Part shown: one piece after another, positions 1 to 54,927 of the stretch
How positions within the stretch are numbered: the stretch's first letter is position 1
How the letters are laid out: the number at the start of each line of letters is the position of its first letter
Assembly (NCBI GenBank): GCA_008632985.1
Contig: QPGO01000179.1
Coordinates: forward strand, 1-64,000
Source: Psammoneis japonica
Taxonomy: Eukaryota
Length of the DNA stretch: 64,000 bases
Reading direction: 5' to 3'
Notes under the pieces: generated by a model
Seen by the model: the letters and a program-made list of their open reading frames with translations, nothing else
Database searches by the model: none
Told to the model about the DNA's origin: nothing
Translations under genes and position numbers: made by a program

Positions 1-169
1 GTGCAACACAGACAGATTGACTTGAGGAGCGGGTGCCACCCCGTTGGTCACAGACGCAACCGGCAAGTGATTTGACGCGTGCGCGACCTTGAGCGAACCG
101 ACGCCATCAATGTGCACTCGAAATGAGTCCTCGTCTCCCTCATGTTTTCCTGTCACGCCATGTTCCTCA

Positions 170-470
170 CTGCAGAGGCGTTGTGGGGATAGAAGACGTT
201 GTCCGGCCTGAGGTACATGGTGCGCCATCGTCTTGACGACGAGCTCCGAGCCGTCCTCGTTGTGGAAAACCCAGGAGACGGGTCCGATGCCGGCGATGGT
301 CAAGCCATTTGCTAGACCCCCAAGCTTCAATGGGCCATCAGGGATCGTCAGAGGTCCGACAAAGTCGTTTTCATCGTAAGCAATGGCTAAGGATGCGCCA
401 GCATCGCATGTGACGGTGTGGCGCTCATGTGCTGGGCTCAGCAAAGCTTGCGGGTCGGCGGCGAGTTGCG
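170..470 (-). pseudogene. copia aspartic protease domain; catalytic DTG changed to DAG
   Basis: Manual translation of the minus strand: HTVTCDAGASLAIAYDENDFVGPL...GLANGLTIAGIGPVSWVF...AHHVPQAGQRLLSPQ. Confidence 0.8.
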
Positions 471-1031
471 CTAAAGAACGTTGGCCCGTCAACACCTGCA
501 CAGAGGCATGAGCAGGACAGGCTTCGGTTCCGTCAGTAGCTGCCTGGAGAAGCTTCACAGGGTCTTGCCATGGAGTGGTGTCCACGAAACCAAACTTGGT
601 GGACAGCTCGTCGAAACGAAAATAGTCCGGAGAGAGCTCCTCAACCGCATCAAAGTAATGGCTCGGCTCGTTCGGGAGCGGGCCGAGGGCTTCCTCTGAA
701 TCACAGGTGTCGAAGTGGGACTCGAGGTCTTCTCGAGCTGGAGGGATGCAGCGGCCTGGGGAAGAGCATGCGTCGTTCTCCCAGAGCTGCGTGAATTTCT
801 TGCTCAGATGATGGTCCGGATCGCGCTCCACAAATTCGGCAAGCACTTGTCGCGCCTTGATCTTGTTGCATTCCACCAAACTGCCCGGATCTAACACTGT
901 CTTGTCGTCCAGTTCTTCAATGATCGAGCAGACCTGAGAGCTGGCTTTGGAGAAGCGAGAAGGGACATTGGAGAATGGATGCGTGGGAAGCTGACCGTTG
1001 AAAACAGACGCCCAGACCATGATAGCTCCAG

Positions 1032-3194
1032 TCAGCACCATCCAGGTAGAGGGGAAACCGTGAATGGTTGGGATGAATGCCTTACGGCGCATGCGACGAG
1101 GTAAGACAGGAATCGGCGCACAGCAAATGTGTGGTGCCGTTTCCCAGAACATGGCAAACAGCCAGAAAACTCGGAGCTTAAAAAGTTCCAGAAAAGCTCA
1201 AGACGAGAGCTCGGCGTTGCCTCCTCGACGCTACAATCAACATCTTGGGGTTCGGGATCGTAAAATTCGAAACCGCGATGCTGGGTGCTTGGAGGTAAGT
1301 GCTCGTAGCTGTCTTCGAAAGGCAGGATGCTTGCCCCGGAAACGAGATCGTCTAACACGTCGTCGGACAGACCTTCCACGTGAGTTGCGATCGTGTCATA
1401 AAACACGTCCGGATTTTGAATCTCGTGCATGGCATAGGCCGGAAATAGCTCGATAGCTGACGGTAGGGAGTCAAAAGAGGAGTGAGCGTCGGAGCACTCG
1501 GAGTAATCGTCAGCGTCTTCAGGGTCAACCGTTTCGACCAAGATGGGAGCGGGTTTGGCCACGGTAGTCTCCCTCTCGGCCGATGGAGCAGGAGTGAACG
1601 AGACGGTCGTAGTCACTGGAGTCGAACTCAAAGAGTCGTCCACAGGTGCACACCACATGCCGCAATAAACCAGCTCGTTAGGGTCAGAGGGTTCGTCGGT
1701 AGGCGGAGACGTCGTCTGCTCGGGAGGACCAAAAGGAATGCCCGAAGAGGGGTCCGACACAGCAGATAAATTTGCCGCAGCGGTGGTTTCGGTGTTGACA
1801 GACGGTTTCCCGGTGTGTTGAGCGGAGGAGTGGCCTTGACACATGCCCTTCTTGCCCGTTTCCTTGTTCACACACTTGTCGCACCAGTGCCAGGTCGTGC
1901 CTTTCTCATCGGTGACAGTGGCACCTTTGTGAACGAAACACCAGGCCGGCTTGGGTGGTTTCTTGGAAGGGTTAGTCTTCCGGACATCCGGAGGGTCATC
2001 CTTGGACTTGTCCGCCGTGCCCTTTTTGTCCTTCTTGCATTGCTCCTTGCAGGTGGGACACGTGCGTTTGGTGCACCCAACCTTGCCACAGCCGCAGCAA
2101 TGCTTTTCCGAGTTGTCTTTGGCGAGGTTGGATTCCGGGAGCTTGGCTGCTAAGGCAGGCCAATCTTCATCGCTAATGAGTTCGCCATGGGTCTTGGTGA
2201 TCCAGCCAATGAGGCCAACAGGTCCAAGATCCGCACAGTCGGCATCCTTGGGGACTTCTGCCGGGTCACGCAAGCGATGTTTGCGCTCCAAGCGCTTGAC
2301 GGAGTCGAGCTTGGCAAAAACTTGACGATTGAAAAACTCGGAGGATGTCTTTGATGCCTTAGATAAAACAGCAGACCCAGTTTCAACTGGCAACGCATGG
2401 TCCGTCTGCATGATCTTGAGCAGGCGCAGAGCTTCGGTTGCAAGCTCGGTGCAGTCTTTGCCAGGGCAGTTGTCCAGAGTTAAGTTGTTCAACTTTTCCT
2501 TGGCGGCCTTGACGTCAACCAGAGCACTGGCGTTGCAGGTGTCCAGAGCCATCATAAATGAGACAGACCCCGGAAGATCCTTGTAGTTCTTCAAGTGATT
2601 AAACTTGGTTTCAATCTTTTCACGGAAGGTTTCGGTGATGCGCGACTTGACGATGAGTTGTGACAAGCCGATGTCATCGATTTCATGCTGATCGTAGCCT
2701 TCGTCACCTGCAGCCGCCACACGGGTCTCATGTTCCTTCTCAAGGTCTTTGACAGTGAAGGCGTGAAGATGATCAAAAAGGTGCACGACCTTGCCGTCGA
2801 CTTTCTTGAGATGGCAGAAAGTTTCTTGTCCGTGCGACTCGATTGAGTCCTGAATGGTCTTGACGAAGTGGTCTTTGTCCAGTTCAGCACTGGAACCGTT
2901 GGACAACTCAATCTGGCCGTTGAACTTGGATGTGGTTGCCGAAGCGAGTTGATCTCTGAGAGATCGCTCGATGGAGTCGACAGCTTTCGGATGGCGACGT
3001 TGCGAGGCAAAACGGCAGGTGCGGGTGTCGGTCTGCTCGCACTTGTTGTTCAGAGCCGAACCACCCAGATGCACTCCATGAGAGTGGTGGATACCGCCGC
3101 GAAGCGGCGTGGGGATCGTAGGAGGGTTGGTCGAGGTTTGCATCTTGGCGAAGGCCTCAGCAAACATCTTGACGGCATCAGGATCCATGGACAT
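1032..3194 (-). pseudogene. copia gag (start of gag-pol), frameshifted near the 3' end
   Basis: 720-aa ORF with CCGCGKVGCTKRTCPTC knuckle and WHWCDKC...H motif. Several Cys/His residues sit where Tyr is typical of this family. Confidence 0.8.
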
Positions 3195-3360
3195 GGTTGT
3201 GGATGATTCAATGTAGAGGATCGATTAGTGGGGAGGGATTGCGATGTAGATGATCGCCGTTGGATTGCGACATAGAAGATCGCCGTTGGATGGGATGTCG
3301 TCTGTAACGAGACGAACGAGTGGCAGCAACTCCGTTGCGAGTTGACACCGGTGCGTGGAT

Positions 3361-3374
3361 TGGGGTCGTAACCA
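3361..3374 (-). promoter_or_regulatory. putative primer-binding site of copia-1 (TGGTTACGACCCCA)
   Basis: TGG-initiated sequence 2 nt after a CA dinucleotide, about 170 nt upstream of the gag ATG. Cognate tRNA not identified. Confidence 0.4.
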
Positions 3375-4574
3375 CTTGGGATGCAACAATGCACTGTGTA
3401 GGATGGAGAGTTCAGGACTCTCTTGAGGTTGTACAATACAACAGAGGATGATAAGAAGCAGGTTTGGGACAATAAGATACGCTAAAGATACGAATTGTGA
3501 GAAGATCTCACGAGGGATTGGAGATGACATTATGACCTAACGGTCGTGTGTGTCACTCCGATTACTATCGCTAGAAGACTCAACGGACATTTCTTCCGGA
3601 AGAAGAGATCCATGACCGGGAGCGTCATCCGTGAATCAGACTCGGTTGTTGACTCGTGACTCGGCGCTCATTCTGAGAATATGGATGACTTCTGGGCTGT
3701 CATCTACTCTTGTTATGGAAGTTCGCTTAGCTCTTGGACTACAATAGTCGAGGCTATTCCGGATTCGTCCGTACCGTGTACACGCGGAGGAATTGCAGGC
3801 ACGAATGTGTACATTGGCAGGGCATGTCCGGGCAGTGATGTTTATTCCGCCGAGGAACTTGTGTGCACCCCCCACGGCGCTCTCTATCTTGAATCGGGTC
3901 CATCCTCTTGTTTCAACGGCGTCGGCTGTCTACAGGATTCGTGTGTTTTAAGCACTCCTCCTCTGGGTGGCGGTGTTAACGAAACATCTATTTCAGAGAA
4001 TTGCCTCTTTGAAGCGATGACTGGAACTGCCACTGTTCAGCGAATTCATCCTAAAAATTTTAAATTTAGTATGACGAACGCTTCTTTTATGGAAACCGAA
4101 CTGGATGAACAAATCATCGATGAAGCAAAGGAGGAACCAAGCAGATCTCCAGTGTCACAAACCCCAACCAGGTCCCCAAGAAACAGCTGAATGGGCATTG
4201 CGCAGAAGTCACCGCGTGAAATTCGGCTAAATTTTCTAGTGTAGTAGATCCGAAAATGGATTCCGGTACATTCGGTAGAATCGGTGAGGTACTCTAGAGA
4301 TTGAACTATTGTGAAACTGACAGCGCTAATAAGTTGGCAAAACCATAGGGCCTAAGTTGGTTCGAATTAAGGGCTCGTATAACAGCCGGAGATGCCGATT
4401 CAACAATGAGAAAATGTTGCTTAACAACTGTAAGACCCGTTGCTAGTGATAAAACTGTTTGCGATGTGTTATCTAGCTAGTGTAGTGTACTGGAAGTGTG
4501 GGTTAGCCGGCGTCGGCATAGCTGGCAAAGGAGTGATAGCACTTAGAAATTAGATTTGTTCTTTTATTTCAAAT

Positions 4575-7500
4575 CTAGCTCGAATCGTCGTCATCACTGT
4601 CTTCGCCTTCGTCTTCTTCAAGATCAAACAGATCCAAGGTATTTTTTCCAGTTGTAAACAAACCTCCAATCCCACGTGAGCCACTCATCATCATTCTTCC
4701 TGTTTTCGACGACGAATGACTAGCTTGTGATTCCAAATGAACCGTTTGCAGATGTCGCGCTAAGTGTGTGCACAGTGATGCAACGACAGCAATAGCAAGG
4801 TGTGAGGATTCGCCGCATGCGCGTAATAGTTACAATACAAGGATTGAACTCACTCCTGGCAAACACAGTGCCATCGTCGGTTGGGGAATCTTCGCCTTTT
4901 TCTTGTATTGGTTGAACATTGACCACGACGTGTGCATCACACCAGTCGATTACCAACGTACCATCCAAGATGCCTTTTCTGCTATGATGGACTGGGAGCA
5001 CTTGGAACACAAGACTGTCGTATTTAAAAAGCCACAACTCCTCGGATACTGTGTCGTCTATGTCGCGGTGCACCAAAAGGGTCATGGCTTGTCGGCCCTC
5101 TTCACCAGTTCCACTATCCGAACCAGACGACAGAGAACTCTTGCCGTCGTCCCCATAAAAACAGATCTCCTGTACATGGCAGTTTAGAGGGAGGTCGAGG
5201 CGACTCGTAAGGTAGTAGTCCATAGTAGCTTCTTCGACATGCTCTCCGCTGGCGCTGTCGTCGCCCGCTTCCTCATGACGAAGCGGAATACAAACAAGTC
5301 GGATAGAATCGCTTTCTCCAAAAGACGTGACACCGGTTGCAACAATAGCCCAATGACGGCTAAACGAAAGAGCCTTGTCGGTACTATCATTGAGAAGGCG
5401 GGGAAAGAAGAACCCGGTGGCATCGTCCGTTTCAGCCGCCGCTTCGTTTTCGATTCCGATTCTTGTGTGGATCGCAACCGCGCCGCTTGTCGATGGTAAA
5501 TTGAAACGAGTCTGTGCCACAGACTCCGTAAGAGAACGCCGCGGCTGTTCAAAGACTTCAACGACAAGGCGATCTACGTTACTCGCCGCATTAACGATTG
5601 TGGGTGTTTCAATCTGAGATTTTTCTTCGCCTCCTGTGATCAAAACAAACAGAGATCATTTAGGCTCGGGTGAACTGCAACCGAACTTAATAGCAGATCT
5701 CGCGCATACGACAGCACCGCAGCAAACTTACCGTTCAAATTTTCCTCGACTGAATTTGGCGAACGAGGACGTGGTGCATAAACAGTCTCTAAGCTTTCAG
5801 AAAAGTACTCCTAGTTGGGGAGCCGCGCCACAAACGCAGAAAAGTGTAAGATACATTCAGACGTGCCAGTTTCAGTGCCTGCATTGCATCGGTTAGCTTA
5901 CCGATAGTGGTAATCCGAGCAAGGATTCAGTGACGCTTGAGCCGGCACCGGCTTTCCCCGAATTACTCAGCGCTTGTTGCAAAAACTCCGTCATGCGTTG
6001 AACAACGACTTGTGGTACACGCCGTATTTCGGCATTTCCTCGCAAAGCCGAATCCTGCGCTGTGCCCTTGGCCTTGATTTGTGACGCAACTGCCCTTAGC
6101 CACGACATTAAATCCCTTAAACGGAAGCGGAAATCTACCAGGAGGGCAATCCAAAATTGAATCGACACCAAGAGTGTATCACTGGCGCGTACCAACTCCT
6201 CCAGAGTCTCGGGTTCTTCCGTGTCGTTGGCCAGAGCCTCGCTGTATAATTCTCCAACATGATAAACGAGCGCCTGAGCTGGAGCCAACAGCCCTCGATG
6301 AGCTTGCGTTTCTACATTGGCAACCGCACTAAAGAGCGAGCGCTCCAATCGCTGCACCAGTTGATCATTCATTTGAATCCCCGTAAAGAATTGATCCATG
6401 GCAGAAGATGCAGGCGCGTCCTTAACGTTTCCAACCAGAATAAACTGAAACAAAATCTGCGCAAGGTCCTGTTCCACTCCGTACCTTTCAAGTATCAGAA
6501 CGAGGTGCAGCAACTTTGTATCGAGTGGGTGAAGCGCTGCCCGCAAGGACGCCAAGCATTCTCGCCCGCTCGTTTGAATGGCTTTTAAATGCATTGTAAT
6601 GTTGCAATACAAAGAAGCCATGATTTGGTAGTGATATCGCTGGGTACAAAGCATCGGCATATGATGAAGCAAGAGATGATTATTGTTCCACGACAAGAGG
6701 TATGTAAGGTCGGAGCAGCATGCCATCTGCAAGTTTGTCAAGACCTGACCGCAGGGAAGCGTAGCAACGTGATAGCGTCCACAAAGATACAACCTGATGC
6801 CGTTTGTTTCTGTTGCTACACTCAAGATACTCAATGGGGTCTTGCATGATGGTAGTGAGCGTGTCGTGGCAGTGACGGACGAATTCGCATCTGTGAGGTG
6901 TTCTGCGTGCTCTGGATGATATGCCTTGTGCGGATCATGATATGCACTCGGAGGCAAAAACACATTGACTCGGTCCAGATATCGAGACCTTAACCTGTAT
7001 ATGATAGAAACGATAGCGAACGCAAATACATGTAGTTCATAAGAGTAGTTACATGCAAGATGAATGAGTCAAGAAGCAACATGCAAAGAAATTTCGTACA
7101 ACACCAAACACGCACCTCCACGTCTCCGCTTGTTCGAGTTCATCGTCGCTTAAGTTCCATTCTGAATGAGGCTTCCCCACATGTGACCAGCATAATCCCA
7201 TAATACAATCATCGATACCTGTAATTACGTGAACCAGTCCGCTTTGCGTGGCATCGCCCAACATGCTCAAGTCTCCACTCAACGTTGTTGGTGATGCGTG
7301 TGGCGACATGATTGATTCAACGTGGTGCAACTCAACGTTTCCATTCGGTAGTGCTATGCCCATTGTGCTGCCGTTGGGACTCCATACCACCGAAAGAGGT
7401 CTCGTAGCTGTCGCGTCGGCGTTTCCGTCCGTGTCGTTGTATTCGAGAGCAGCTAGTCGTTGCCAAGATACCGTTCGATGCAAATACAACTTATGCGAGA

Positions 7501-7615
7501 GAGACAGCAGGACCAAGTCCATGGAAGGACACAGAGCACATCCAGACAGTTTAAGGGGAGTTCCCAATCGTCGAGACTGAACGGAAGCAAAGCATTGCTT
7601 GGTATTCTCCGTCAT
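4575..7615 (-). CDS. ANAPC4: Anaphase-promoting complex subunit 4; exons 7615-7116, 6994-5902, 5810-5732, 5633-4854, 4759-4575 (2637 nt, 878 aa)
   Basis: N-terminal CPSMDLV...LHRTVSWQRL...WSPNG WD40 segment, central APC4 helical domain, C-terminal SGSRGIG...LFDLEEDE. Four GT-AG introns join in frame to a TAG at 4577-4575. Normal Tyr and TpA content. Confidence 0.9.
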
Positions 7616-10600
7616 GGTCAACTCATATTCTGGCCGCTGCTTTTTTTTGCGCGCATCTATCGCGCATCCAACAAGATCGTCTGTCTGGCGAAATCCAGCC
7701 GAAGAGTGCAGAAAACCCAAAGTCAGATGAGCATCGCCGTGATGAAAATCAAAACTGGCAAAATGGCTCAATGAGAGCACAATTGAGCCAAATCAAAAAG
7801 GTCACAAATTCATCATCATCATGTGAGGCCAGTGCAAGCACGTGTGGTGCATGGCATTGCAGACTCTGCTGCTCTTCTTGACTGAGTGGAGACACACATC
7901 ACCGCCAGGGGACTGTCAGAAAACTCCTCATCTCCAGACCTGGGTCATCCACTTGGAGTTTGCACAAAGAGCAAGCAAAAGGAAGAAGTTCTCACAAAAG
8001 TGTTGCCACCTGCAGCCCTTTCAAACCCAACCCTCTTCTGGCCACACCATTTCCCTGAACTCATTTTTCTTTTCTCAACCACTGGGACTCTGCAAACCCA
8101 CTTGCTCTCTGTTTTTAATGTGCTGCTCCCCATCTTGCTCCTGTTCTTCTCCCCATTCTTTTTGCCTCTCTTGCTCACACTCTTTTTTCTCTTTTCTGGC
8201 ACACTTCCAACTTTCCACATTCACTCAAACTGACCCACAACACCTTCATTGATGTCTTGAGGTTCCAACAAAATTCCCCTGGTTGTTTGCCCATCATCAT
8301 CTGACCAATGACAAGCACTGTGAGCCAAAAGCTGAGCCTTGTCTGTGAGCCAAAAGGACAGTGCCTTGGAGCAACAGAAGCACCAGCATCTGCATCTGCT
8401 GCAATGAGAGGCTTGTTTGCTTGGGTGCATTTTGCCACCATCTGCTCCCCTGCAAGTGCTTCAACAAATGTTGCTGTGTGTGCTTGGAACACGAACCTCA
8501 ATGTTGGACAGAGTCTCTGGCACCAAAGAGTCCATGGCCAAGATGTGCAGCCATCTCTGGAGCGGTCTTGTTGTTGAGCAAGCCACTTTGTTCCAAGCAG
8601 GAGAGACCACTTTGGAACAACAACAGGAGCAGCAGCACACTCCATGGATGCTTGTCAATGCTCTTCTCCTGCTTTGTCTTCCATGAAGATGCAGCAATGC
8701 TGCTGCATTGAGAAGTGTCACAGCCACATCAAGGAGTCTCTTGTTTGTGCCAAAGAAACACCAAGGTTCATGCCATCTCTTTTGGTCAATGCTCTTGTTG
8801 AGCAAACCACTTGTGGCTTGTCCAGGGGGCACTTTAACACAACAGTGGGAGCAAGAGCAGTGCTGGTGCACACAATGAGGGGCCCCATGACTGCACTCAT
8901 TCTTTTCCTCTGCCTGTCCTTCTGCCAAACATTTGACCACACCACCACATTGACTTGTTGAACATGAGCACAAGCACCATTGCTGGGCAGAATGTCTTGT
9001 GCTAAAAGAGCCACAGCTGGTGACATGTCGTGAGCAGCGTTGTCTTTGAACAAGCTGCTTCCAAGCTGGGGAAACTTTCTTTCTAAAAGAAGAAAAGGAG
9101 TGACAGCAGCACTCTGGCATCTGTGGTGAGGGGCTCTTGTGCTTTGTGGCACACTCTTCTCCTGCACCCTCTCCACTCTTCTTCTGCCAAGATTCAATCA
9201 TGCTGCTGTGCTGATTTGGGAGATGGGGGTGCTGTCACTGGTCAGAGTCTCTTGCAGCAAGATCAACACAGCCAATGTTGTCTCTTGGGCAGGGTGTGCC
9301 CAGGTTGTTGTGGAAGCAGGTGTGCTTGCTCCTGCTGTTGCCTCTTGGACACAGCTCTCTCCTGTGAATGCAAAACTTCCTCTTGTTGCCAGAGCACTTG
9401 TTGACATCCAGGTGCAGAAGTCATTTGAAGACTGTGTGGCTGTCTGTCATTGCACAATGCCCGTGAGTGCCCATTGTTTCATCAAAGCACAGTGGCTTTT
9501 TTGAACCCAGCAGGCTGTGCATCAGCAACCAGTCAGAGTGAGCTCTGGCTGCTGGGTTTCCATTTGTGATGGTCTTGAAATGAACTGGCTTGGTTCAGGG
9601 TTCAGGCCCAGATCTCATCAACTGTGCTTCAATGTCTGCTGACTCATCAAGCCAGCATGCATTGCAATTGCATGGAGTGATGCCAGACCAAGCAACAAAT
9701 GACTGTCATTGGAGATGTTTCAGAGCATGCCCAATTGCAAAAAGCAAGCGCTGTGTCATGGGAAATCTTGCTGCTTTTGAGTTGAAAGCTTGCTGTGGTT
9801 GTTTTCAACAGCAGCACAAGAGTGCCCCACGATGCCTGCCATTGGAGCTGCACAGAGAGAGAGAGGTTGCACCCCCCAATTTTTGTTCAAACATCTTGGA
9901 TGCACCTGCATGGGCTCTGTCATGAAGCAAGAGTTGCAACTCTGCTTTGAGTGCAAGCACTTGCTCTGCAGTTTCTGGTTTGTGTCACAGAAACTTGCAG
10001 CTGCATCCAGGCAAAGGCACAGATTTGGATTTCTTGGAATCCATTGTGGAAGCAAATCTTGACATTGCACTCCAAGCCATCTCAAAACCTGTGACCAGGT
10101 TTCTCAATTTGAGACATCATGTGTCTTGTCTGCCAACCCATCTGCAAAACTGGCTGCCCCCCAGCCATGACAAGACCAGACTTGCATCCTGGAACACACT
10201 TCACTTGGACATCATTCTACAACAAATCCTCTTGCATTGGTGCTGTTGTGATTCTTCAGAATCATGTGTCAGACGGCCTGGAGTTCGCAAGTGATGAAGC
10301 CCACGCTCATGGCATCAGTTCTCAAATGTGCTGCAGGTGTTTGCCTGGCAGAAGATGCATTGAGAGATCTCATTCTCAGAGCCAGCAATCTGCCATTGTG
10401 ATGGAATGGCTGTGAGTCAGTGTCAAAACATGACAACCCAAAGAATGCGAAAAGCAAACTCTGTTGCTGCCACCCTCACAAGTCAGTGGCCGAGAATGTG
10501 CGACACAGGAAGGGTGCCTTTCAAAACCTCAACCAGCTGTTGGGGTGTGGCTTTGGACCCATCAAAGAAAGATGAGGCAGCTGGGTTGTTTGATTGGAGG

Positions 10601-13600
10601 GAAGAAGAAATGGAAGAGCTCAAAAAACTGAAGCTGCCTGGAAACTGAGACAGCTTGGTGGAAAAACAGTTCTGACATTTGTGCTGTTTGTTTGAGCTCA
10701 CTTGTGCTCTTTCTTTGGAGCCCAGGAGAAACATGTCAAGCAATCCAGCATGAGAGTGGCAGCTGCACTGTCATGGCAAGGATTGAAATGGGAGTGCATG
10801 CAGAAGAGAGCAAAGCAGAGATGCGGTCGACATGATGATGCAGGCACCGTGGAACAGAGGTGCTGCCAGAGTGAAGCTGCTCTGCCGGCAGCTCTGGCTG
10901 AAGAGCAGTGGCTGGAGCAGCAGCAGCAGCAGCAGTGGTGCAGTGGGTCATTTTCTTGTTTTCGTTTCGAGCATGTGGACCCACATCCATGAATGTTTGG
11001 CAAAAAAACTGTGGCCAATGTTTTCCTCCACACTTGTGCGGCACGACAATCCGCAGTGCTGCACAGTGTTGTCACGGGCAAGTTGTTCTGCACAGAATGC
11101 TGGCATCACCTTGCGTGGGATTTTTTAATCAGACTGATCAGAAAACACTGTCAATTGACAATTTTCCCCTTGCATGGACGATGTTTTGCTTTGGAATCTT
11201 GCACAAGCACTTGCCAGCATGTTGGAGGCACAAACACTCTTGCAACTGCCCAGTGAAGCCAGACACCGTCAGCAGAATGTGAGCCACAAACAACCACTGG
11301 ATGGCCAACCCTCCTGGGCACACTTGGATTCAAAGGGAAGTGACAGGCCATCCCACTCATGCTTCCGCTGTTTGTCACAAAGGTTCCATGGAGCAGAGGC
11401 ACAAGCAGGTTGCAGAATTTCTGCCTGCAGAGGAGTGCTTGCGGGTTGATCTCAAGAATGGCACCATTTGCCAGGACGAATTTTTGTTCGTCGCCAATCA
11501 GCACCTGCAGCGGGTTTGAAATGCAAAGAACAAGGCCTGCTTGGATCATTGCCGACCTTCGCTTCACAGGGCGGGGGATGCTGGACTGGGTGTTGCATTG
11601 AACAGTGCTTTCCATCTGGAGATTGGCGAAGAGGCAAAAATTTGCCAATGGTCACTGCTCCTGGCACCTTGTTGACTGGAGAGAAAAAATGCACAACAGC
11701 TGGCAATCACAATGCATTGCTCATCAGACTTAGAATTGCTGGTGTGGAAACTGATGACTTTTTGTCTCACAGCCACATTTGGAGTTGGGTCCAATTTTGA
11801 AGTGCAAGGGAGCTTCAGCTAAAGTGCAACTGCTTTTGCATCTTTGTCCTCCACCGGCAGTCAGCTCTCCACAGATCAAGAGCAGGCACCATTGGCTTTT
11901 GTTCGGATGGCAACCCAAATTTGCAGTCCACCACATCATTGCAAGCGCACAGGCAAACAGCGCAGAAATGGTCCAGCAGTGCATTTCGATGACAGGCTTG
12001 GGACTTGGAGTGGAAAATGCCCCCCACCGGCTTGGAGGCCAGGAAAGAAAGCAAAGGACCACCCTGAAACACAGATGCAAGGGAGCATTGTGCACGAAAA
12101 CAGAAACCACGACAGCGATTCCACAAGTGCTGCGACCGTCATTGCAGTCCATGGGCGCACACACGGAATGACCAAAGCGCAATTGCAGATTGCCACACTG
12201 TCCTTTTGGTCTTTCTGCTGCCACTGCAAAGGCTCAAATTGTGCATCAAAAAAATTGAAACACACCAATGTCAAAAGCGGCAATTGAAGTCGGTTGCGCA
12301 GGGTGATGTTGCCTCAAGAGCTCCATCAAAAGATGGCGCTCAAGCTTTTGCGCATCTTCAGAGTGAAATGTCGCTCAAAAAAAGTGAAAGGGGGGATGCA
12401 CTGCGGAGACAACAAGAAAACTTCAAAGTCAACCGCATTCTAAATCAACACTCCCTGCAAGTGAAGACCTGCCGCATCATGTCACTGATGCGACGGAACC
12501 CCAAACCCGCGTTCTGTCAATGGCATGATCTGCTTTGCGAGCTTTTGCTGCTTCACAGACAAGCACTGCTGTCTGTTTCAACAGCCGTGACCTGACGGGT
12601 CAAGCAAACAGGCAACTTCCTGCACTCAAAGACACAAGAGTGACATGGTCTCAAGGCCGGAGAGACGCGCTTGATTTGCCCCAACCTCTGGACTTGGCTG
12701 GCAACACCTGCGCCACCCAGAGACAAAACGTCAGCAAGCAAAATGATTCGTGGAGCACCAAACCGGAGCTGGCATTCTGTTCCAGAGGAAGGCAAGCCAT
12801 CATTGGCAATGGCTGCAATCCTTGCTTGGTGAACAACAAACACATCATGCAAGATGACAAGTTGTGATTGATCGAAAGCAAGAGCTCAAAAGAACAAAGC
12901 TTTCCGAGAGATTTTGCGTGTCACACAACTGTTGCTGAATTTCTCAATCACTGTCCTTTTTGTGCATGTTTGTAAAATTGATGCCATGAATTTGCATGTA
13001 GAAGATTCGCAGGAACGCAGTGCTTTCATTGACATTGCCAATTCCTGCGCACACTTTGCGGCAACCATCGAAAATGCAAAAAAACTGCCAGACGTTTCGC
13101 TTGAGGCCTGAGCTCCCAAATTCTCCAGACTCCAAGCAGCACCGCACTTCACTCACCATGTGACTTGAGACTGCCGCCTGCCGCCACTCCCAGCTGGGAG
13201 GTCTGCAAGTGGTGCGGAAGGCCTGCCGCCTGCTGCCCAACATGGCAATGTCATTCAGTGAGGGCGCAAAACGCACGGGTGTCACACCCGGGCAGGCATG
13301 ACGCACGGATTCAAAAACAGGTGTTAAACTCCAATTCATTCATGGGGTGTGACACTTGGGGGTCACACCCGCATTGTTTGCACGGGTGTGAAGCACCGGG
13401 TGTGATGCCTGGTTTTCATCAGTGTAGAATTCAGCAGGACAAGTGCCAAAGAGCCAACAATCAACATCAAATCACTCAACAGTCAACCAGCACTGCGTTT
13501 GCATCCAAGTCGATGCCACAGTGTGATTCTTGCAGCATCTGTCAAGGCCAACACAAGTCCAATTGCCTCAACACATCACAAGTCAAACATTCATGCCCAC

Positions 13601-13899
13601 TGTTGACATGCCACGGTTGCTTGCAAGTCATTCTGGCGGTGCAGGTGCCGTGCACTTCAAATGCCGACGACCGCTGACACAATTTGATGGAGTCAGCACG
13701 ATGCATCAGGTGTGCAACAATGCATTCATTCCATGTGCAGCACTTCTGTGCTTTCTGACAATGCTCTTTTTTCTCTTTTGCATGCTTCAGGTGCTGAACA
13801 GTTCAAAACAATTTGAAAAGTCTTTTCAAAGAATGCACGTGACGACGGCTGCGCTGCTCTTCACTCTTCACGATGCTTGCCTGTCTTGTGCTCAACAAG

Positions 13900-14980
13900 T
13901 TCCGGCACAAGGCATGTGTGGCTGTTTGTTTTGTTCTCCCTCTTCCCTTCATTTCTGTTGTTCTGAGAGCTGCCAGTTCTTTTTTTGCCTGGTTCAGGTG
14001 CTGCTCCATTCACCATGCTAAATGCAACAATCAAAAATGCTGGTTGTCGGGATGAACGTGACGACCGCAACACCACTTTGCGATGCTCAAGGTGTGTGCG
14101 GCTGTTGCTTTAGTTCTCTCTTCTCCCTTTCTTTCTGTTGCTCGCATGACTTGTCATTTCTCCTCTTGCATGGTTCAGGTGCTGTGCAATTCATCATGTT
14201 GGAATGCAACAATGAAAAATGCTGGTGGCCCCACTTTGCGATGCTCAAGGTGCGCGCGGCTGTCACTTTAATTCCATCTGTGCCCTTCATTTCTGTGGCT
14301 TCCAAGACTTGCCATTTCTCCTCTTGCATGGTTCAGGTGTTGTGCAATTCATCATGTTGGAATGCAACAATGAAAAATGCTGTGGCTGTGATGGGCATGA
14401 CGACGTCAACACCATGCTCAAGGCACAAGCTGGCACAATTTTGATTCTCTCCATCCCTTTGTTTCTGCAGTGTTGCAGACTTGCTGCTCCACCTCTTGGG
14501 AGTGACTGCTTCTCCTCTTGCGTGGTTGACATGCAACAATCGAAAATGCTGGTGGTTGGGACAGGTGCGACGATGGCGACGTCGTGATGCTCAAGGCATG
14601 AGCGGACATTGTTTTGATTCTCAGACTCACTGCTCCACCTCGTGAGAGTCAATGCTTCTCCTCTTGCATGGTTGACATGCAACAATCAAAACCACTGGTG
14701 GTTGGGATGGGCATGATGACGGCGACCCCACTTCGTGATGCTCAAGGCACGAGAGCGCACATTGTTCGGATTCTCTCCACTCCCTTTGTTTCTGTGATGC
14801 TGTTCACTTGCTGCTTCACCTCTTGAGAGTCAACAGGACCTCACCTCTGCTCTTTCACAGTTCATTGCTGGTGGTCGGGATTTGGGATCAACGTGACAAC
14901 CGCCACACCTGCTTGCGACGCTCAGGGCATGTGCGGCTGTTGCTTTGATTCTCTCTGGTTCCTTTGTTTCTGTGTTTCTG
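13900..14980. repeat. degenerate tandem array of ~6 units of ~130-190 bp
   Basis: Recurrent TTCTCCTCTTGCATGGTT...ATGCAACAAT(G/C)AAAAATGCTGGT...GATGCTCAAGG. Confidence 0.8.
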
Positions 14981-17189
14981 TCATTTTGTTGCCACACACA
15001 GTTGTTTCATGGACTGCCATTGTCAAGCTGACGAATGTGGCATCTGTTCATCCGTTTCCAACTTTGTGTGGGCTCCCTCCAGAGTTCAGAGTTTTGCTTC
15101 TGCTTGTTTGCAAAAAGCACTTGATTTGTCCCACATGTGAGACCAAAGAGCAGTTCATCATGGTTGTAAAGAAAGTTGTTGTTGCCATGCCTCCCAGTGC
15201 AATGAGAGCCCACACCACACAGAGGCTTGGTGGTGGTGTGGGTGCTGCCGGCAGGGTGGAGCAGTGATGCGATTTTTTGCCATTGGCCACGACGACTGTG
15301 TTGTTGTCACCATCTCAATCTGCCAGGACCTGTTCCAACCTGTCTCTCTAAATGTTCATGCTGGCATCATCATGATCATGAACACCATCGTGTTCTGCAT
15401 CACTGTCGCCGCCGTGTCCCTCTTCCTCGGCCTCCACCATGTCCACCTGTGCAAAACACACTTCTGGCGGGTCGTCACCACCCACACCAACCACATCAGA
15501 GTGCACGACATCGTAATGTCTGCACACATGATAAAAACATGTTGCTGTGTTATAAAATCTGCTTGTCTGCACATGATGGTTTTTGTCATTTAGTTGATTG
15601 TCAATCTCCTGCTGTTCTTCATGTTTGAACACAGATGCTTTTTAATTTTTGTGCTCAGCCTTTTTCACAACTGCTGATGATCTTTAACGACAAGCCAAAC
15701 ATTGCAATTGCATGCAATGAAATTTTCATCATGCAAAGTGTGCGCCAATCATTTGGTCAATGACTGTGCTCCAATTGGCCTGTTCGTCCGCATCGTCCTC
15801 TTCATTCCACATGTCTTGTCCGCTCTCTTGCAAGAATTTCAAATGTGCGTGCCGCTGCTGCATTGGATGTTTCCTTGTCACCATTCCAAAAAAGCCACAC
15901 TGCATTTCTTGCATTTGGGTGAACATCATTGAGAGGAAGAGGTCCCTCGAAACGCAGAATCGTGTCGCTGCTCCCCTCTTGACGTCGTGTCGTCTGCTTC
16001 TTTTTCTCTTTCTTCATTTTTCCCGTCCCATTTTTCTCTTCCTTCTTCGTCTTGGCGCCACCTGTTTTCACCGTCTCCGGTGTCTTTCCAACCGAATCCT
16101 TCTTTTTCATCAATCCCGTCGCCGTCGCCTTCATCGTGTGTGACTTTGTTCTGGATCCATGTTTCTGACTTCTCTCTGTGCTGTCCCCATTTCCAAATGT
16201 TTCTTTGTGATTGTTCGCATGCGTCACTTGAAGGCACCCACGTGTTCTTTACGCACCTTAACGCGCATGCAGAGATCCATGTTGTTTTCCAGCACATGCA
16301 CCCTTTCTCCTGATGCTGTTCCACACAACATTTTCTTCCATCAATTCTGCACTCCGCATTGCCCTTTCCCGGTGTTGTCTCACGTGGGATTTCTCTGGGA
16401 GAAGTTGCGTGCGCGTCTGGCAGGTTTTTGTGTGTGAAACTCCAAATCCCACCAGGCACGCATGTGACTTCTCCCACGCACCACTCTGGCATGTTTCCAC
16501 AGAAACCAGAATTTGGTGACTGATGCACGACCAATCTGGTGAATGCAATGGCGGACCCACGACCACAACAATCAGAGCATTGGAAGAAAACCATGTCAGA
16601 TGAACTCTGTCCATCCGCTGCTCAGAATTTCCATCGCCGGATGATGGAGACAGTTGATGGTTTTGTTCATGCTGACGCTGCTCATTGTTTGGAGGACCAG
16701 AGAGCAAAGGATGCAAAGGCTGCTGTGTCAAGATCGGCAGAAGCAATGGCAGAAGCCCGTTGTGCTGCTGTGGCTGCAACAACTGCACTTGACAGTGCTT
16801 TGTTAAATCCAGCAACAACCGCTCACAAATTTGCGCACATCTGTGCGCAGTTGATTGAGTCATCAATCGAGACACACTGTTCAGACAACGACCACATTGT
16901 TGCAGTGGAAAATTGCAGCGAAGCGAAAATGAGTTTCCAGCACTTTCTTTGCGGCAACGCATTTGACGCAAAAGAATTGGGGCTCCCAATCTCCATTGCG
17001 GGACATCAAAAATCAGAGTTGAGGCTGCACATGCTGCACAGCTGTGACTCGACGTTGCTTCTGAGAAGCCTCAGGGCAAATTCTGACACAGATGCCAACA
17101 GAGCAGTGGAGAGGGAGCAATCTGCGATTGACAGCATCAACAAATCCATCCACCGCCGTGCCGTGCCACTCCTTTGAAGGCAACATGGT

Positions 17190-17953
17190 TTTGAAATTTT
17201 TGGTTTCTAGAGTGACAGGAATAGACTCGCTGGGTGGAAGAGGGAAATGCTTGGTTGAGGTGCACATCAACTCTTTTCTCCTTGGCAGAACTGCACCAAG
17301 CTCAATGTTGCTGTCACCAGTGTGCCTCTCAATGAAGTCAACAATGTGGTCGCACAATTCCAGGGGAGCACCGCGTGTGTCCATGAGCTTCTTGCACAAC
17401 TCTGCGCAAGCTCTGTCAAGATTTGTCAAAGAGGGAGTAGAAGCCAAGGCCTCTTCTGCAGGAGCGTCACACCTGCTCCCCAAATGTTGATCCTCATCGT
17501 CAATGTCCTCTTCCTCCTCCATTGTCACGTCCAACACTGCAGCAAAGGATTGACCACCGCCAACATCCAACTCGTTCATTGCCAAAAAAGTTCAGCTCCT
17601 TGCATGCTGTGGTTTGATGAAATGGAGGACATGTTGTCCACTCCGTGCGGCGCGTCATCCGGGGAGGGGAACAAGGGGCTGCTGCTCGGATCACTCGTTG
17701 AAGATCTTGGGAATCTGCTACGAGTTGATCGCCTGGGACAGGATTCGTCATCATCAGAGGACAAAGAGGAAGAACTGCCGCTTTCTTTGGGTGGCCCCTC
17801 TGTTGTGGCAGGAATGTCGCTTTGATCTGGGACCAGATCTTGGGTTTGCAACTCTTGGGCAACTGAGCAACACGTCGGTGAGCACCTCCAATGGCAGGCC
17901 ATTTGCAAAAAACTTTGGCCACAACCGGGACAGAGAAGAGGGGTTCCGTCCAT
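17190..17953 (-). pseudogene. N-terminal relic of a Plavaka-like transposase (Zn-finger, acidic tract, helical segment)
   Basis: CPGCGQSF...HW...C followed by LMDTRGAPLELCDHIVDFI...LPRRKEL...P..IPVTLE, resembling the APLxLYD N-terminus of Plavaka-type ORFs as I recall them. Catalytic core not seen. Confidence 0.5.
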
Positions 17954-18405
17954 TGCAAATCAGACAATGTTGACAGGGCCTTCATCAAGACTCATGCTCG
18001 TCATCCTTGTCTTGTGGATGAGAAGGGAAAAAAAGAACAACACGCAAAAAATGGCGGGAAATTGGCAAACATTGCATTGTCTTCCAGATTGGGATGATTC
18101 TCACAGGCATGATGCATCTGCATTTTGATTTTTTATCTGGCATCCACAACGAACATTGTGCTTTTTATTTGCTGTCAAAATGCAGGATGCCATCTCCATT
18201 GAAGCGCAATGACAGCCACATCAAAAAGCAAGTTGGGCCACTCATTGTCATGTGTGAACACATTTTCAAATTTCAACGTTGCTGACAACAATTTGTGCAA
18301 TGTCACAGAGAAAAATAGAGTGCCTGGCTGTCTCAACACGACCCAAATGATGGTTGCACTGTCGAACAGCACCGCTCCTCTCATTGTTGCCGTGAAAAGA
18401 TCAAG

Positions 18406-19620
18406 ATGTCGTCTTCAGCACAACCGGCAAAGAAGAGAAAGAAAAATGAGACTGTCAAGCCAATGAGCCCAAGACTTCAGGCAGTGTTGAAGAGACCAGG
18501 CACGCAGGCAGCGCATGGTGCATTGAAATCAGAAGCAGAGAAGGTGGCTGGAAATGATCTCTTTCCACAGGTGAAGTTTCTCAGTCCATCTGAATTGGCA
18601 AGCAATGGGAGCGTCTCAATGTTTGTCAAGAAACAGATTGCTGGTGGCAACATGGACACTTCAAATTGGTCAGGAACTTGGGAGGAATGGGCAAAAAAGG
18701 TGGCAAAAAGGCAAATTGACAATCGCAGAAACACGGTGTGTTCGGCTGTTGGGGCGGAGGCAATGGCACATGAGTCAAGTGGCCAATGTGTGTGATTCGA
18801 GAGTTGCGTGTGTCTCACAAGAAGATGATGGTGATGCTTTGTCCACTGGGCGTTGTCATCAAGGAAGAGGGAAAGGAAAAAGAAAAGAAACTCAAGGCGG
18901 CAGACAGGAGGAAAAAGAGGAAAAAGTCAAGCCATGACAAGAATGAAGAGAATGACATCCCGTTTGTGCCAACATGGGATCCGTTTGGCCTGGACGCTGT
19001 CACCGGCGGCAAACGAAGGAACAAGCAGGCACGCAAGTGGTTCTGTGATCACATCCTGCCTCAAACCAAGCAAAAGCAGGCGCGGAGCAGCGCCGTCAAA
19101 ACTGGGAACGCACAGGTCTCACAGTTGTTTGCGGTCGATGACGAAGCTTTGGCGCTGTCTGCTGTGGAGAATTGTTGGCAGGTGTGGGCACACAGGAACA
19201 AGGAGGAGGCGGTGGAAGAATTGGGTGAGGAAATGGAGCCCAAAGAAACAAGGCCTGCCCCTCGGTGCACGAAGCCAAAGAAACAACGACTGTCTTGGGG
19301 AGACGACGGAATCAATCGGTTCAACGATTTGTGCGAAGAGGTGACGAAAGACAGAGACTCCAAGGAGGGCAAGGAGTTTGAAAAGTGGCACGCAGAGATC
19401 AAGAAAAGCGAGCACGAGAAGTCCGGAGAAGCAAAAAAGAAGAAAAAGAAAGCACCGATGGGTGGTGCGGATGAGGTGAAGGCAATGAACAGCCTGATGG
19501 TGGAGAGCAGCAGGGACGACAATGGCAACGACGATGAGCAGGAGGAAGGCGCAAAAGGCAAAACGGACGATGGAGGAGACGAGTCCGATGGAGACGAGTC
19601 TGATGATGACCGTCAGCTTG
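18406..19620 (+). pseudogene. transposon accessory ORF relic (LFPxxKF...W...RN; DEAxALxxxENxW; RxT...SWxxxGIxRFN)
   Basis: ORFs 18406-18795 and 18786-19841. The motif order is conserved in the paralog at 31420-32590. Confidence 0.6.
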
Positions 19621-26447: not shown

Positions 26448-27604
26448 GGGCTTCTTGGCAGGAACAATCAGAGACCGAGACTGACGACGGATTTATGCAC
26501 AATGAATGCCATCTATTTTAGAGCTATTTCTCGCTTCCTGCATCCGCAGCGCATTCCGGGCACACTTTGGCACGTCAAGTGGACCATCCGCTTGGGGGCT
26601 CAGACTCGAGAGCTCACACCATCCACTCGTGTCCTCAGCATCGCACATTCGCAGATCAAAGAAGCATGCCTGCATCATTTTTTGCATCACTCACCAATTC
26701 AGTTCTTCTCGTCTCTTGACCAAGTCCAGTGTGACGCGAACCGCGTCCAAGCCACTGAACAGTGCTTCACTTTTTTCGAAAGGCTTTGGGGTCATCAGCT
26801 GGGAAGGGGGAAAACCATCGAACAAGCGGTTGCTTCAATTTTGAACACTTCCGCACCAACAGCAGTGGACAACATGCTTGACCATTGCCATTCCAGCACA
26901 TGCCTTTTCAGGAAACAAGTGCCACAACAGCTGTGGGACTGAAGCAAATGGGGGGCGTTCCGCTCGATCGAGGAAATGATGGATGATGTCCCCACGCACA
27001 TTGGCAACCCGTCGTGCACACATGAGTCGCAACGGAGGTGTCTCAATCACCCCACTCGTCCAAGGATCAATGATGGGGATGCGCTGCAAGGAACAGGATG
27101 CATTGTGCGCACATGACTTGCCCACCCGCCTGAGCAAACGATCCAGGTCTGGGCGTCATCATGTCTGTCATCAACTCTGTCCTTGGCATTTGCTGGCAAA
27201 GTGCGCAGAAACGGGTGATGCGAATGAGGCTTGCTGCCAATTATGCGCCGATGGCAGTCGGAGAAGAAAACCCGAGCGGGTCACAACTGTGGAGACCCTG
27301 TGGCTCACCACACTGACACTGTGCTCACACTGTGAGGACAACGGAGTTTGGAGCACTGATCAAGGTGTTCCCTTCTTGTGCCTGAAAACACTCAAGCATT
27401 TTGCTCTTTCAGTTGACGAGACTGCCTTTCTTGGTGCTGTCCTTGAATTTGAAGATCCCCGTCAGGCAGAAGGAAGACCTCTCATGTGACTCAGCCAGTT
27501 GACCCTTGAAATGAAGCGTCAATGTGCACAACACCAAAATCGAATGACCACGACAGAAGCAGAACATGCAAAGGAAGCATTTGCCTGCAATCCGGGATTG
27601 ATCT

Positions 27605-27810
27605 TCAATGCTCCAAACTCGTTTCCAACTCTTGGAGACATTCCATGAAGGAGCAATTTGGTTGGATGCAACTCCAGCCTTTCTTGGCTAGCACCAATGC
27701 ATCAGCACGGCTCAGTGCAAACTTTTGCATCAAGTGTGCAACAACAATGGCCCCAGATCGCGAAACGCCCACACTGCAGTGCGCCAACACATGTTTGCCA
27801 CTGCGGACAT
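27605..27810 (-). pseudogene. dual-specificity protein phosphatase, C-terminal fragment
   Basis: VLAHCSVGVSRSGAIVVAHLM...IQPN.SFM..L matches the VLVHCxxGxSRS...AYLM...IxPN DSP motif. Confidence 0.85.
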
Positions 27811-27829
27811 TCCTCGCATTGTTTTCATC

Positions 27830-29870: not shown

Positions 29871-31419
29871 TGGAGTGCCTTTGACGTGATGACTTTGTCA
29901 TCGCAGATTCTCTTGTCTCTGCAGTCTCCATTTGCTTTGCCATTCATGATGGTTTGTCCCATCATCACTGTCAGGGGCCGAGTGAGAGACCGTTTGATGC
30001 TGTCACATGGCAAGGTCACATGCGGTGGTGACTTTGGCAAAGAACCTGTCCATGTCGATGCAGCTTGGGACATTTGTTGGAAAAACATGGAGAGTGAAGA
30101 ACAAACCATCAAGCAAAAATGGAAGAAACTTTGGGTGACCAAGTGCAGGATTGTGAGCCAGGTGCACAAGAACATTCATGAATGGAGCATGGAAGTGAGG
30201 GAATGCATGCACACCACCCAGGCCATGTTCTCCATTCACAACAAGGATGAGCGTGCAAGTGTGATCACAGAGCATGCGAGGAAGGCTCACAGGAAGGCTC
30301 ACAAATCATGACAGTGTTGGAACTCAATGGCAACACACCCGGACAGGCAGGGAGAACAGTTTTGTGAAAGCGGCCAGTTGACCCACCCCATCAAAGAGAT
30401 GGCATGCCAGATGTTTTTGCAGCTGGATCAAGGGGGGGCAAGCTCCGTCTGGTGATTGACAAGCAAGACGCGGGTGGGTTGAGAGAAGAGTCAACCATTG
30501 GTTTGCTCACATGTGGAATGGACCAAGGCAGCAGATGCGGGCCACTTGCATTGGATGATGGTTTGGGAGGTGTGTGCTCACCAGTCATGGACAGAAAAGG
30601 CATCGTGTTTGATGCTTGGAAACTGGCAGAATTGTTCAAGCAACAAATGACATGAGACACATGCCACAGGTTGTGGCAGTGCAATGAATTGGAGTTCTTT
30701 TGAATTGACACAAAGGATGGTTGACAGTTGGACATTGGAAATCATCAAGAAAATGAACCCAGGTGTGGATTCCAGCCATTGTTGCAAGGATAAAATGGAG
30801 AGATGTTGGAAGAGACATTGTCCAAAAATGAAGAAAGAAAAGATCCGTCATCATCACGTGGAGCATTTTGTTGGTTGTGTTCATGAGGCAACAGATGCGT
30901 TTGATCGCATGACTGATTGCTCAAATGAGGGTGGGCACAGCAATTTTGTCTTTGTCCATTTAGAGGATGATGCTGTGGAAGAAGTGGGTTGGAGAGCGAT
31001 TTCGGCACCAAGCATCTGTCAGAGGTTAAGAGCTCATGAATGCGAGCTTCTGCCCTGTGTGGGGGCTGATGTTCATGTGTGAATCTGCACAATTAAAAGT
31101 TTCAAATGCAATGATCAAGTTGCACATCAAATTTGTCATTGACAATTGGCTGCAGTGTTTGAGTTGAACATTTCATCTTTTGAACTAAAACAAACACAAC
31201 CATGGATGTTGTTTTCAAAGAAAAATGATGAACATCAGTGTTTGTGATTGTTTTGGAAAGAAGTGCCAGCCAAAAATGCACAAGGAGGGGCAGCAGCATC
31301 ACCTTCAGAGTGCAGGAAACAGGTTTGAAATTTTGCAAAGCCGGTCTTCCTCTGAAGAGCTGTTGCACCACAGGATTGTGGCAAATGGAGAAACTGACAA
31401 CAACACAATGAGTTGAGGG

Positions 31420-42392: not shown

Positions 42393-42396
42393 TCAA

Positions 42397-54904: not shown

Positions 54905-54927
54905 TTCTTAAAATCTTTGAAGTTCTG

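Follow-up and report, generated by a model that had tools for sequence, protein, structure and literature searches.

The first 64,000 nucleotides of contig QPGO01000179.1 of Psammoneis japonica (GenBank assembly GCA_008632985.1; the whole analysed stretch is here denoted the window) begin with a copia-like retrotransposon segment, positions 1-3230, which has lost most of its TpA and kept its CpG, and contain four large domains from which TpA is almost absent. The depleted motif in the segment is plus-strand 5'-TAY-3', irrespective of the 5' base (R, purine; Y, pyrimidine; N, any base), and the plus strand is antisense with respect to the element. In the four domains, the surviving TpA sites support a per-strand rule under which the A of 5'-TAY-3' is lost before the A of TAG, and the A of TAA is lost last. 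A previous sequence-only reading had taken the segment as a snapshot of an early stage of TpA loss. This is plausible; the alternatives are that the pattern was acquired on complementary DNA (cDNA), or inherited from a source copy of the family. The features at this end of the window are the following (ORF, open reading frame; LTR, long terminal repeat).

1..1197, minus strand: second ORF (P0002), in another frame, protease/beta-barrel part by its alignment to the homologous protein P0061, cut by the start of the window.
1035..3224, minus strand: gag-like ORF (P0001) of 730 codons, with 12 homologues at 29-42% identity.
1..3400: zone nearly devoid of plus-strand TAY (antisense in the element) by flank counts, with normal CpG.
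3373..4090, minus strand: putative 5' LTR together with an upstream repeat, both normal in TpA; the window holds no second LTR.
4575..7792, minus strand: ANAPC4, a spliced host gene used as an unaffected control (Pfam PF12896 and PF12894).

The segment contains 46 TpA, an observed/expected ratio (o/e) of 0.28, and 227 CpG (o/e 0.94, against about 1 in the host sequence of the window), bearing out the claim that CpG is abundant here. Sorted by flank on the plus strand, the 46 TpA comprise 2 RTAY (the GTAC at 213 that the sequence-only reading had named, plus ATAC at 3091), 28 RTAR, 2 YTAY (TTAC at 1082 and CTAC at 1231) and 14 YTAR. We compared these counts with 2000 dinucleotide-preserving shuffles of 1-3230. 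Shuffling predicts 9.5 +/- 2.7 RTAY, and two or fewer appeared in 2 of the 2000 shuffles. For plus-strand TAY as a whole the expectation is 19.1 +/- 3.3, and none of the shuffles went as low as the observed 4 of 46. RTAY is also deficient relative to the pooled light regions of the window (205 of 720 TpA; Fisher p 1e-4) and to ANAPC4, where at 4575-7615 the 121 TpA divide into RTAY/RTAR/YTAY/YTAR as 41/39/19/22. Thus, the predicted near-absence of RTAY and its deficit against ANAPC4 both stand. Of the classes said to survive, RTAR and YTAR are indeed kept and YTAY is not. The asymmetry between RTAR and YTAY, two classes that differ by strand, is strong (binomial p 9e-7) and persists when measured against the natural asymmetry of related gag genes (p 0.003), and RTA on the plus strand is retained at 30 of the 46 sites. 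Since both ORFs lie on the minus strand, the motif lost in the element's own sense is RTA.

The depletion stops at a defined place. Plus-strand TAY and TAR number 4 and 46 at 2-3372 (TA o/e 0.29, CG o/e 0.96) versus 21 and 13 at 3373-4090 (TA o/e 0.69; Fisher p 2e-7 against the internal part), and the change-over falls between 3399, where the run has its final TAR, and 3432, where TAY first reappears. By eye we noticed a sequence resembling a primer binding site and starting with TGG at about 3372-3357 of the minus strand; the depletion ends some 30-60 bp upstream of it. A tRNA scan of the window, meant to check this sequence, returned 0 genes. Contigs sum to a depth of about 1700-2900 over 1-3335 and of 3860 over 3336-4002, compared with about 100-190 in most single-copy bins. 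This profile suggests a family of some 15-25 copies with an LTR reaching about 4090, an end interpolated from the next depth bin.

The label copia for 1-3230 draws its support from homologues, as neither P0001 nor P0002 matched any Pfam family. P0036, a homologue of P0001, carries PF22936. The alignment of P0002 with P0061 (E 6e-31) covers residues 667-993 of the latter and with them its Pol_BBD domain. P0061, a 90%-cluster member of one of the homologues, has Pol_BBD, a weak gag_pre-integrase match, SH3_retrovirus and RVT_2 in that order. The window takes in no more of the element than its 5' 3.2 kb, with the gag and protease part.

The loss of TpA can be followed at the protein level. A single step of TA loss turns a Tyr codon into one for either Cys (TGY) or His (CAY). 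We aligned P0001 with 11 of its 12 homologues, leaving out the weakest, P0044, and took as conserved any column in which 60% or more of the relatives have Tyr. In the 18 columns so defined P0001 has Cys in 7, His in 5, Val in 2, Leu in 2, Phe in 1 and Tyr in 1. Similarly, several Tyr residues of P0061 face His in P0002.

The TpA loss in 1-3230 is mutational and not a matter of codon usage. Sense-strand RTA is low in all three codon phases (0 of 13, 2 of 17 and 2 of 15 TpA). Sense YTAY is kept in all of them (13, 7 and 8 sites), including Leu codons TTA and CTA in which a TA-to-TG change would be silent, and protein selection therefore does not explain the asymmetry. All 13 Tyr codons of the copia-like ORF are preceded by a pyrimidine, versus 14 preceded by a purine and 9 by a pyrimidine in three ANAPC4 ORFs. 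We also examined 11 related gag genes in metagenome DNA, with TA o/e of 0.35-0.82. Their 540 TpA fall in sense into RTAY 149, RTAR 91, YTAY 201 and YTAR 99, so that relatives of the family do not lack RTAY. The sense ratio of RTA to YTA is 4:42 in the copia-like segment and 240:300 in the relatives (p 5e-7), whereas that of TAY to TAR is 30:16 and 350:190 (odds ratio 1.0). Only the former is shifted, indicating that one flank matters, the one that reads TAY on the antisense strand.

Three of these gag relatives (L007, L009 and L010), which belong to other hosts, have CpG o/e of 0.08-0.37, CpA/TpG o/e of 1.6-1.7 and TpA o/e of 0.35-0.45, with RTAY present. In them CpG decay comes first, the opposite order to that in 1-3230.

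The rest of the window allows the flank preference to be read on both strands. In dinucleotide profiles, o/e in the light stretches is about 0.4-0.9 for TpA and about 0.7-1.25 for CpG. The heavy set sums to 41,002 bp in four domains, with TpA o/e of 0-0.14, CpA/TpG o/e of 1.5-2.1, variable CpG and GC of about 49%, and with borders that are sharp at 250-bp resolution. None of the four has a strand assignment.

7750..19500: heavy domain H1, with TpA o/e about 0.03-0.1, CpA/TpG o/e 1.5-1.85 and CpG o/e 0.03-0.8.
26700..33250: heavy domain H2, from its dinucleotide profile and TpA survivor classes.
33751..48250: heavy domain H3, from the same two lines of evidence.
55801..64000: heavy domain H4, likewise.

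The heavy domains retain 112 TpA, of which 59 are YTAR, 29 RTAR, 23 YTAY and a single one RTAY. In the light regions the RTAY/RTAR/YTAY/YTAR classes number 205/187/183/145 (chi-square p 1e-15 for the comparison). The claim that YTAR makes up most of the survivors in heavy sequence is therefore correct. RTAR and YTAY are balanced, and TTAA by itself accounts for 30 of the 112. We fitted a multiplicative model in which the adenine of each strand survives independently according to its 3' neighbour, assuming that the domains started at the composition of the light regions. The fitted per-strand survival is 0.08 for TAT, 0.14 for TAC, 0.29 for TAG and 0.57 for TAA, and the model reproduces all 16 NTAN counts. 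An RTAY site offers two good targets, one on each strand, and a YTAR site none, which yields the order RTAY > RTAR = YTAY > YTAR. The same order, with RTAR and YTAY ranked together, had been proposed by the sequence-only reading. It describes the survivors of the saturated domains and breaks down in 1-3230, where YTAY is as depleted as RTAY and RTAR is kept.

If instead a purine two bases upstream set the rule, the survivors would be the same and the products different. The products favour the rule of the 3' pyrimidine, on evidence that is moderate and not decisive. At sites where one of two repeat copies keeps TA, RTAR has become RCAR rather than RTGR by 7:1 and YTAY has become YTGY rather than YCAY by 5:3. 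Sites concordant between the copies comprise 94 RCAR versus 64 RTGR and 109 YTGY versus 58 YCAY. In bulk, YTGY plus RCAR outnumber RTGR plus YCAY by 2867 to 1941 in heavy sequence (1.48) and by 666 to 555 in light sequence (1.20). Sites discordant between the copies (CA against TG) had uninformative flanks (RR 21, YR 19, YY 25, RY 27), probably because sites derived from CpG are mixed in.

The comparison of repeat copies also gives the direction of the change and argues for its action on DNA in place. Identity between the copy at 33.5-34.3 kb and that at 62.2-63.0 kb is 77%, and overall they differ by transitions. Among 27 aligned TA, those of the first copy face CA in 9 cases and TG in 8 in the other. 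At 44 further sites one copy has CA and the other TG, which points to independent editing of one ancestral TA or CG in each copy. Part of the first copy falls outside the heavy sequence, in the following feature.

33251..33750, no strand: island of normal TpA (30 TA in 500 bp) in a repeat copy otherwise free of TpA.

The island belongs to the repeat copy from about 33500, and the remainder of that copy is TpA-free from about 33770. An edge of hypermutation that cuts through a repeat copy argues for action on integrated DNA.

The data support TpA loss as a process separate from CpG decay and the first of the two to saturate. In 39 heavy 1-kb intervals TpA o/e is 0-0.14 throughout, with CpG o/e ranging from 0.05 to 0.79 and no significant correlation between them (rho 0.27, p 0.09). 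CpG-to-TpG/CpA changes are seen in the heavy domains when repeat copies are compared, and 1-3230 shows no such decay. The flank bias of the CpG changes is also different. CpG survival relative to the light regions is 0.20-0.24 for CCGA, TCGA and TCGG, 0.38 for CCGG and 0.58-0.76 for GCGA, GCGG and GCGC. YCGR is thus lost most and GCGC, at 0.76, kept best, the opposite direction to the bias of TpA. This suggests that C after a pyrimidine is lost preferentially. Together, the o/e values of 1-3230, the 39 heavy intervals and the separate flank bias support the claim that TpA loss is distinct from CpG decay and faster.

These observations lead us to propose, tentatively and at somewhat less than an even chance, that 1-3230 is the minus-strand gag-protease part of a Ty1/copia-like element caught at an early, strand-biased stage of editing in place. 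The same host-directed hypermutation that emptied the four domains of TpA would have processed the segment in part, through A:T-to-G:C transitions that turn TpA into TpG or CpA. The chemistry would be deamination of DNA adenine preceded by T, much faster when a pyrimidine follows (5'-TAY-3'), by a putative deaminase. Every NTAN site would carry one such adenine on each strand, and TTAA would resist most. At the early stage nearly all TAY of the antisense strand would be gone and the sense strand far less affected, owing to a step that exposes one strand, for which transcription from the LTR would be the likeliest candidate. Both strands would have been struck by the time the domains were saturated. 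CpG-to-TpG/CpA decay would be a second, slower process with a flank preference of its own. The data show the direction of the change, its restriction to TpA, the pattern of flanks and strand, and the independence from CpG; the deaminase, the timing in place and the tie to transcription are inferred. Action in place is favoured by the sharp edges of the domains, one of them inside a repeat copy, and by the de novo TpA-to-TpG/CpA mutations seen in integrated viral DNA of Bigelowiella natans mutation-accumulation lines (bioRxiv 10.64898/2026.01.13.699255). A comparison of 1-3230 with high-depth contigs rests on the nine differences listed for this segment, with 1017 further ones across the 20 kb compared. 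Among the differences listed, the window has CA at 301 where the contigs have TA, TA at 1023 and 1232 where they have CA, and TG at 261-262 and 2278-2279 where they have CA. Differences at TA, CA and TG sites in both directions argue that editing went on after the copies had diverged.

We consider it doubtful that the agent is an adenine-directed analogue of APOBEC3, a deaminase of single-stranded DNA that acts on 5'-TAY-3' where the antisense strand of retrotransposons is exposed. Its substrate might be minus-strand cDNA, or a strand that an RNA guide or a transcript has displaced, with the LTR spared. The strand-specific footprint would come first, and TpA would be erased from both strands later, in silenced chromatin. 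Such an enzyme would disable elements by missense changes of Tyr to His or Cys and by the loss of TA-containing signals, creating no stops. Because TA-to-CA or TA-to-TG changes cannot create a stop codon, the open frames carry no weight for function. No deaminase gene was found within the 64-kb window.

Several points weigh against the early, in-place stage. Seven conserved Tyr of P0001 have become Cys, a sense-strand change, so that the strand bias is graded, not absolute. Were the whole integrated element the substrate, both the LTR and the two strands alike should be affected, as they are in the saturated domains, and neither is the case in this copy. The product asymmetry of one-strand editing is invisible in the bulk counts of 1-3230 (plus-strand TGY 117 versus RCA 118; RTGY 59 versus RCAY 53). 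The ends of the LTR, the primer binding site and the start of transcription are putative throughout. The host non-coding sequence at 4091-4574 (3' UTR, that is untranslated region, or intergenic) has TAY:TAR of 7:24 at TA o/e 0.82, indicating that some strand asymmetry of TA flanks arises without hypermutation. The family stands at about 15-25 times single-copy depth in sequencing run X1, and the depleted state may therefore be common to many copies rather than particular to this one. Finally, it is from the signature only that we equate this process with the TpA-directed hypermutation described in Bigelowiella natans (Mettrop et al., bioRxiv 10.64898/2026.01.13.699255).

The strand bias and the spared LTR would also be expected if a single-strand DNA adenine deaminase had edited the minus-strand cDNA during reverse transcription, the copy being integrated already edited. 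This is unlikely, although several points favour it: the antisense strand is the one edited, sense RTA being rare against YTA with sense TAY:TAR unchanged; the internal part is depleted up to the putative LTR; and Tyr-to-His replacements, sense T-to-C changes, are frequent in both ORFs. During retroviral reverse transcription the DNA of the LTR becomes double-stranded early, and the minus strand near the primer binding site is single-stranded for the shortest time. No corresponding gradient is seen, however, and the depletion is complete next to the sequence resembling that site, in a window that contains only the 5' end of the element. The Tyr-to-Cys replacements again need a change on the sense strand. 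Editing of cDNA can explain neither saturated domains whose edges cut a repeat copy nor the mutations that integrated DNA viruses acquire in B. natans. Alternatively, the footprint may be inherited, the source copies of the family having long been depleted of the motif on the vulnerable strand and transposing nevertheless. The depth on 1-3335 fits this, as do the contigs at about 740-1020, which differ from the window at few listed places, the open state of both P0001 and P0002, and the intact CpG. We regard inheritance as quite unlikely, as the change of 12 of 18 conserved Tyr to Cys or His looks more like damage than adaptation, the open frames are uninformative under a chemistry that makes no stops, and the two-way differences listed from the contigs have editing continue after divergence.

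Chance, composition or codon usage without any special mutation process is very improbable. The asymmetry at 4091-4574 and the excess of sense YTAY over RTAR among the gag relatives show that such biases exist. They are outweighed by the shuffles, none of which reached the observed TAY count, by the independence of the depletion from codon phase, by the frequency of RTAY in the relatives, by the conserved Tyr turned into Cys or His, and by the saturation of the same signature over about 41 kb nearby. A sequencing or assembly artefact, such as systematic miscalls at modified bases, is barely credible. Run X1 was the one sequencing run listed for the segment, with no RNA run listed; it contains only 0.61 of the sampled words of 1-3230 and may be the source data. 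Contigs of that run nevertheless match the heavy stretches 13268-13815 and 12616-13214 with 0-1 differences, paralogous copies are discordant between CA and TG, the protein-level changes are coherent, and in B. natans the same signature came from Illumina data (bioRxiv 10.64898/2026.01.13.699255).

Elsewhere in the window, two further features were noted.

About 23.2-23.9 kb: coatomer-beta gene, by Pfam match.
55001..55800: possible second intermediate zone, with plus-strand TAY at 3 of 27 TpA (RTAY/RTAR/YTAY/YTAR 1/13/2/11).

Both host genes, ANAPC4 and coatomer-beta, have TA o/e of about 0.6 and are thus spared. Within the length band searched, which would leave out a full-length protein, the best match to ANAPC4 has 48% identity. 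A contig of run X2 links 4868-5632, 5901-6992 and 7114-7540 within ANAPC4; although the run is labelled 'DNA?', the contig omits 5633-5900 and 6993-7113 and thus behaves like spliced RNA lacking two ANAPC4 introns. The zone at 55001-55800 was set aside as a weak second example of strand bias, because a stretch of about 125 bp is present twice by eye (54926-55050 and 55146-55270, some 220 bp apart) and the sites are not independent. The window holds 38 ORFs of at least 180 aa and 159 of 110-179 aa, with long ones in all six frames. TAA and TAG are almost gone from the heavy domains, leaving TGA as nearly the sole stop, and long ORFs abound there because the chemistry of TA loss removes the other two. 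A Pfam search of 32 ORFs of at least 180 aa and 148 of the 159 shorter ones (the 11 omitted all lie in 1-7577) gave above the cut-off solely the domains of ANAPC4 and coatomer-beta, and no credible match in the heavy domains. H1 had no match among its ORFs of at least 180 aa and two sub-threshold matches among those of 110-179 aa. At its end, 15342-20000, summed contig depth rises to 5800-21000 versus about 100-190 in most single-copy bins, which marks a family of highly abundant repeats. Counting contigs of 80% likeness or more, 7338-12006 and 13341-15341 have the depth of single-copy sequence. At the start of H4 (56010-56050, plus strand) we noticed by eye, without profile confirmation, a Cys-His stretch resembling a zinc knuckle, which suggests a heavily mutated retroelement gag on the plus strand. 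Two long ORFs of 716 and 304 aa at 51892-54907 (minus strand) have normal TpA and CpG; neither P0064 (51892-54039) nor its neighbour matched a Pfam family.

If this reading is correct, the target of the deaminase is 5'-TAY-3' and not TpA alone, a biochemical prediction for any candidate enzyme. First hits that fall on one strand and end near the LTR boundary would point to a substrate that is single-stranded, or linked to transcription or cDNA, rather than to duplex DNA. A later and separate CpG layer would provide two independent clocks for dating insertions. In addition, TpA-free domains without TAA and TAG yield long spurious ORFs in all frames, by which gene callers would be misled.

Among known systems, repeat-induced point mutation (RIP) of Neurospora and other fungi converts CpA to TpA, raises AT content and creates stop codons. 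Our domains resemble its products in carrying host transitions in a dinucleotide context within skewed domains that have sharp edges. RIP was nonetheless rejected, as it would bring a gain of TpA by C-to-T change at CpA: here TpA o/e is about 0.03 and CpA/TpG o/e 1.5-2.1, the change runs from TpA to CpA/TpG, TAA and TAG are lost, GC is about 49%, and much of H1 is single-copy at 80% likeness or more. Cytosine deamination of the APOBEC3 type, with G-to-A changes on the plus strand, was likewise not found. It shares with 1-3230 a bias to the minus strand, an LTR less affected and a short context, a likeness of pattern only, the LTR limits being putative. The base changed here is however the adenine of A:T pairs at TpA and not cytosine, CpG and GC are normal in 1-3230, there is no gradient, and both strands are saturated in the heavy domains.

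ADARs favour a 3' G, a preference not seen here, TAG and TAA being the slow contexts and TAC and TAT the fast ones. The natural target of ADAT and TadA is A34 after U33, and the TadA substrate reads UAC, which would fit TA(Y). ADARs act on RNA, whereas the change described here is fixed in DNA, including single-copy DNA. Enzymes of the ADAR/ADAT/TadA group convert A to I, read as G, and prefer a 5' U or T, in line with the 5' T required here, as set out for ADAR in the Discussion of the preprint, which also draws a comparison with RIP and mentions APOBEC3 (bioRxiv 10.64898/2026.01.13.699255). Methylation-driven CpG decay, or the TCG-biased hypermutation reported for basidiomycete transposons (PMC3318451), resembles the CpG-to-TpG/CpA change of the heavy domains, strongest in YCGR. 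It differs in being here a second layer, absent from 1-3230 and variable within TpA-free domains. A paper on Lemnamoeba (PMC13746701) was set aside, as the part seen concerns AC/GT microsatellites and not hypermutation.

The closest likeness is to B. natans, and TpA hypermutation in general is therefore already known and not new. In that alga, TpA-to-TpG/CpA hypermutation affects integrated viral DNA. Fifteen mutation-accumulation lines yielded 302 nuclear single-nucleotide mutations, 231 of them in two integrated viral regions, and all the GC-biased ones (230 of the 231) fell on TpA as A-to-G or T-to-C, with de novo rates in some lines of about 1e-7 to 1e-6 per site and generation. The authors further describe 124 TpA-poor, CpA+TpG-rich clusters and propose an ADAT2 homologue as the enzyme (bioRxiv 10.64898/2026.01.13.699255). 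Our literature search returned no other report of TpA-directed hypermutation. Both systems change TpA to TpG/CpA only, in kb-sized clusters depleted of TpA and enriched in CpA+TpG, whose ORFs are mostly unannotatable. The TpA-poor coding sequences of B. natans are enriched in reverse transcriptase and transposase domains, and in our window a copia-like element is hit and the host genes ANAPC4 and coatomer-beta are spared. By the cut-offs of the preprint (at most 0.43 for Rho TpA and at least 1.52 for Rho CpA+TpG), heavy 1-kb intervals qualify or nearly so, with TA o/e of 0-0.13 and mean CA/TG of 1.52-2.12 in the four domains. Positions 1-3000 fail the second cut-off, at CA/TG o/e of 1.08-1.30 and TA o/e of 0.16-0.46. 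The terms 'context', 'flanking', 'trinucleotide' and 'CpG' do not occur in the main text of the preprint. Subject to its supplements, what is thus added to that text is the rule on flanks, an early stage on one strand, the sparing of the LTR and a separate layer of CpG decay. The feature at 1-3230, which the sequence-only reading had described in part wrongly, is a real instance of this recently reported kind of hypermutation, with mechanistic detail added.

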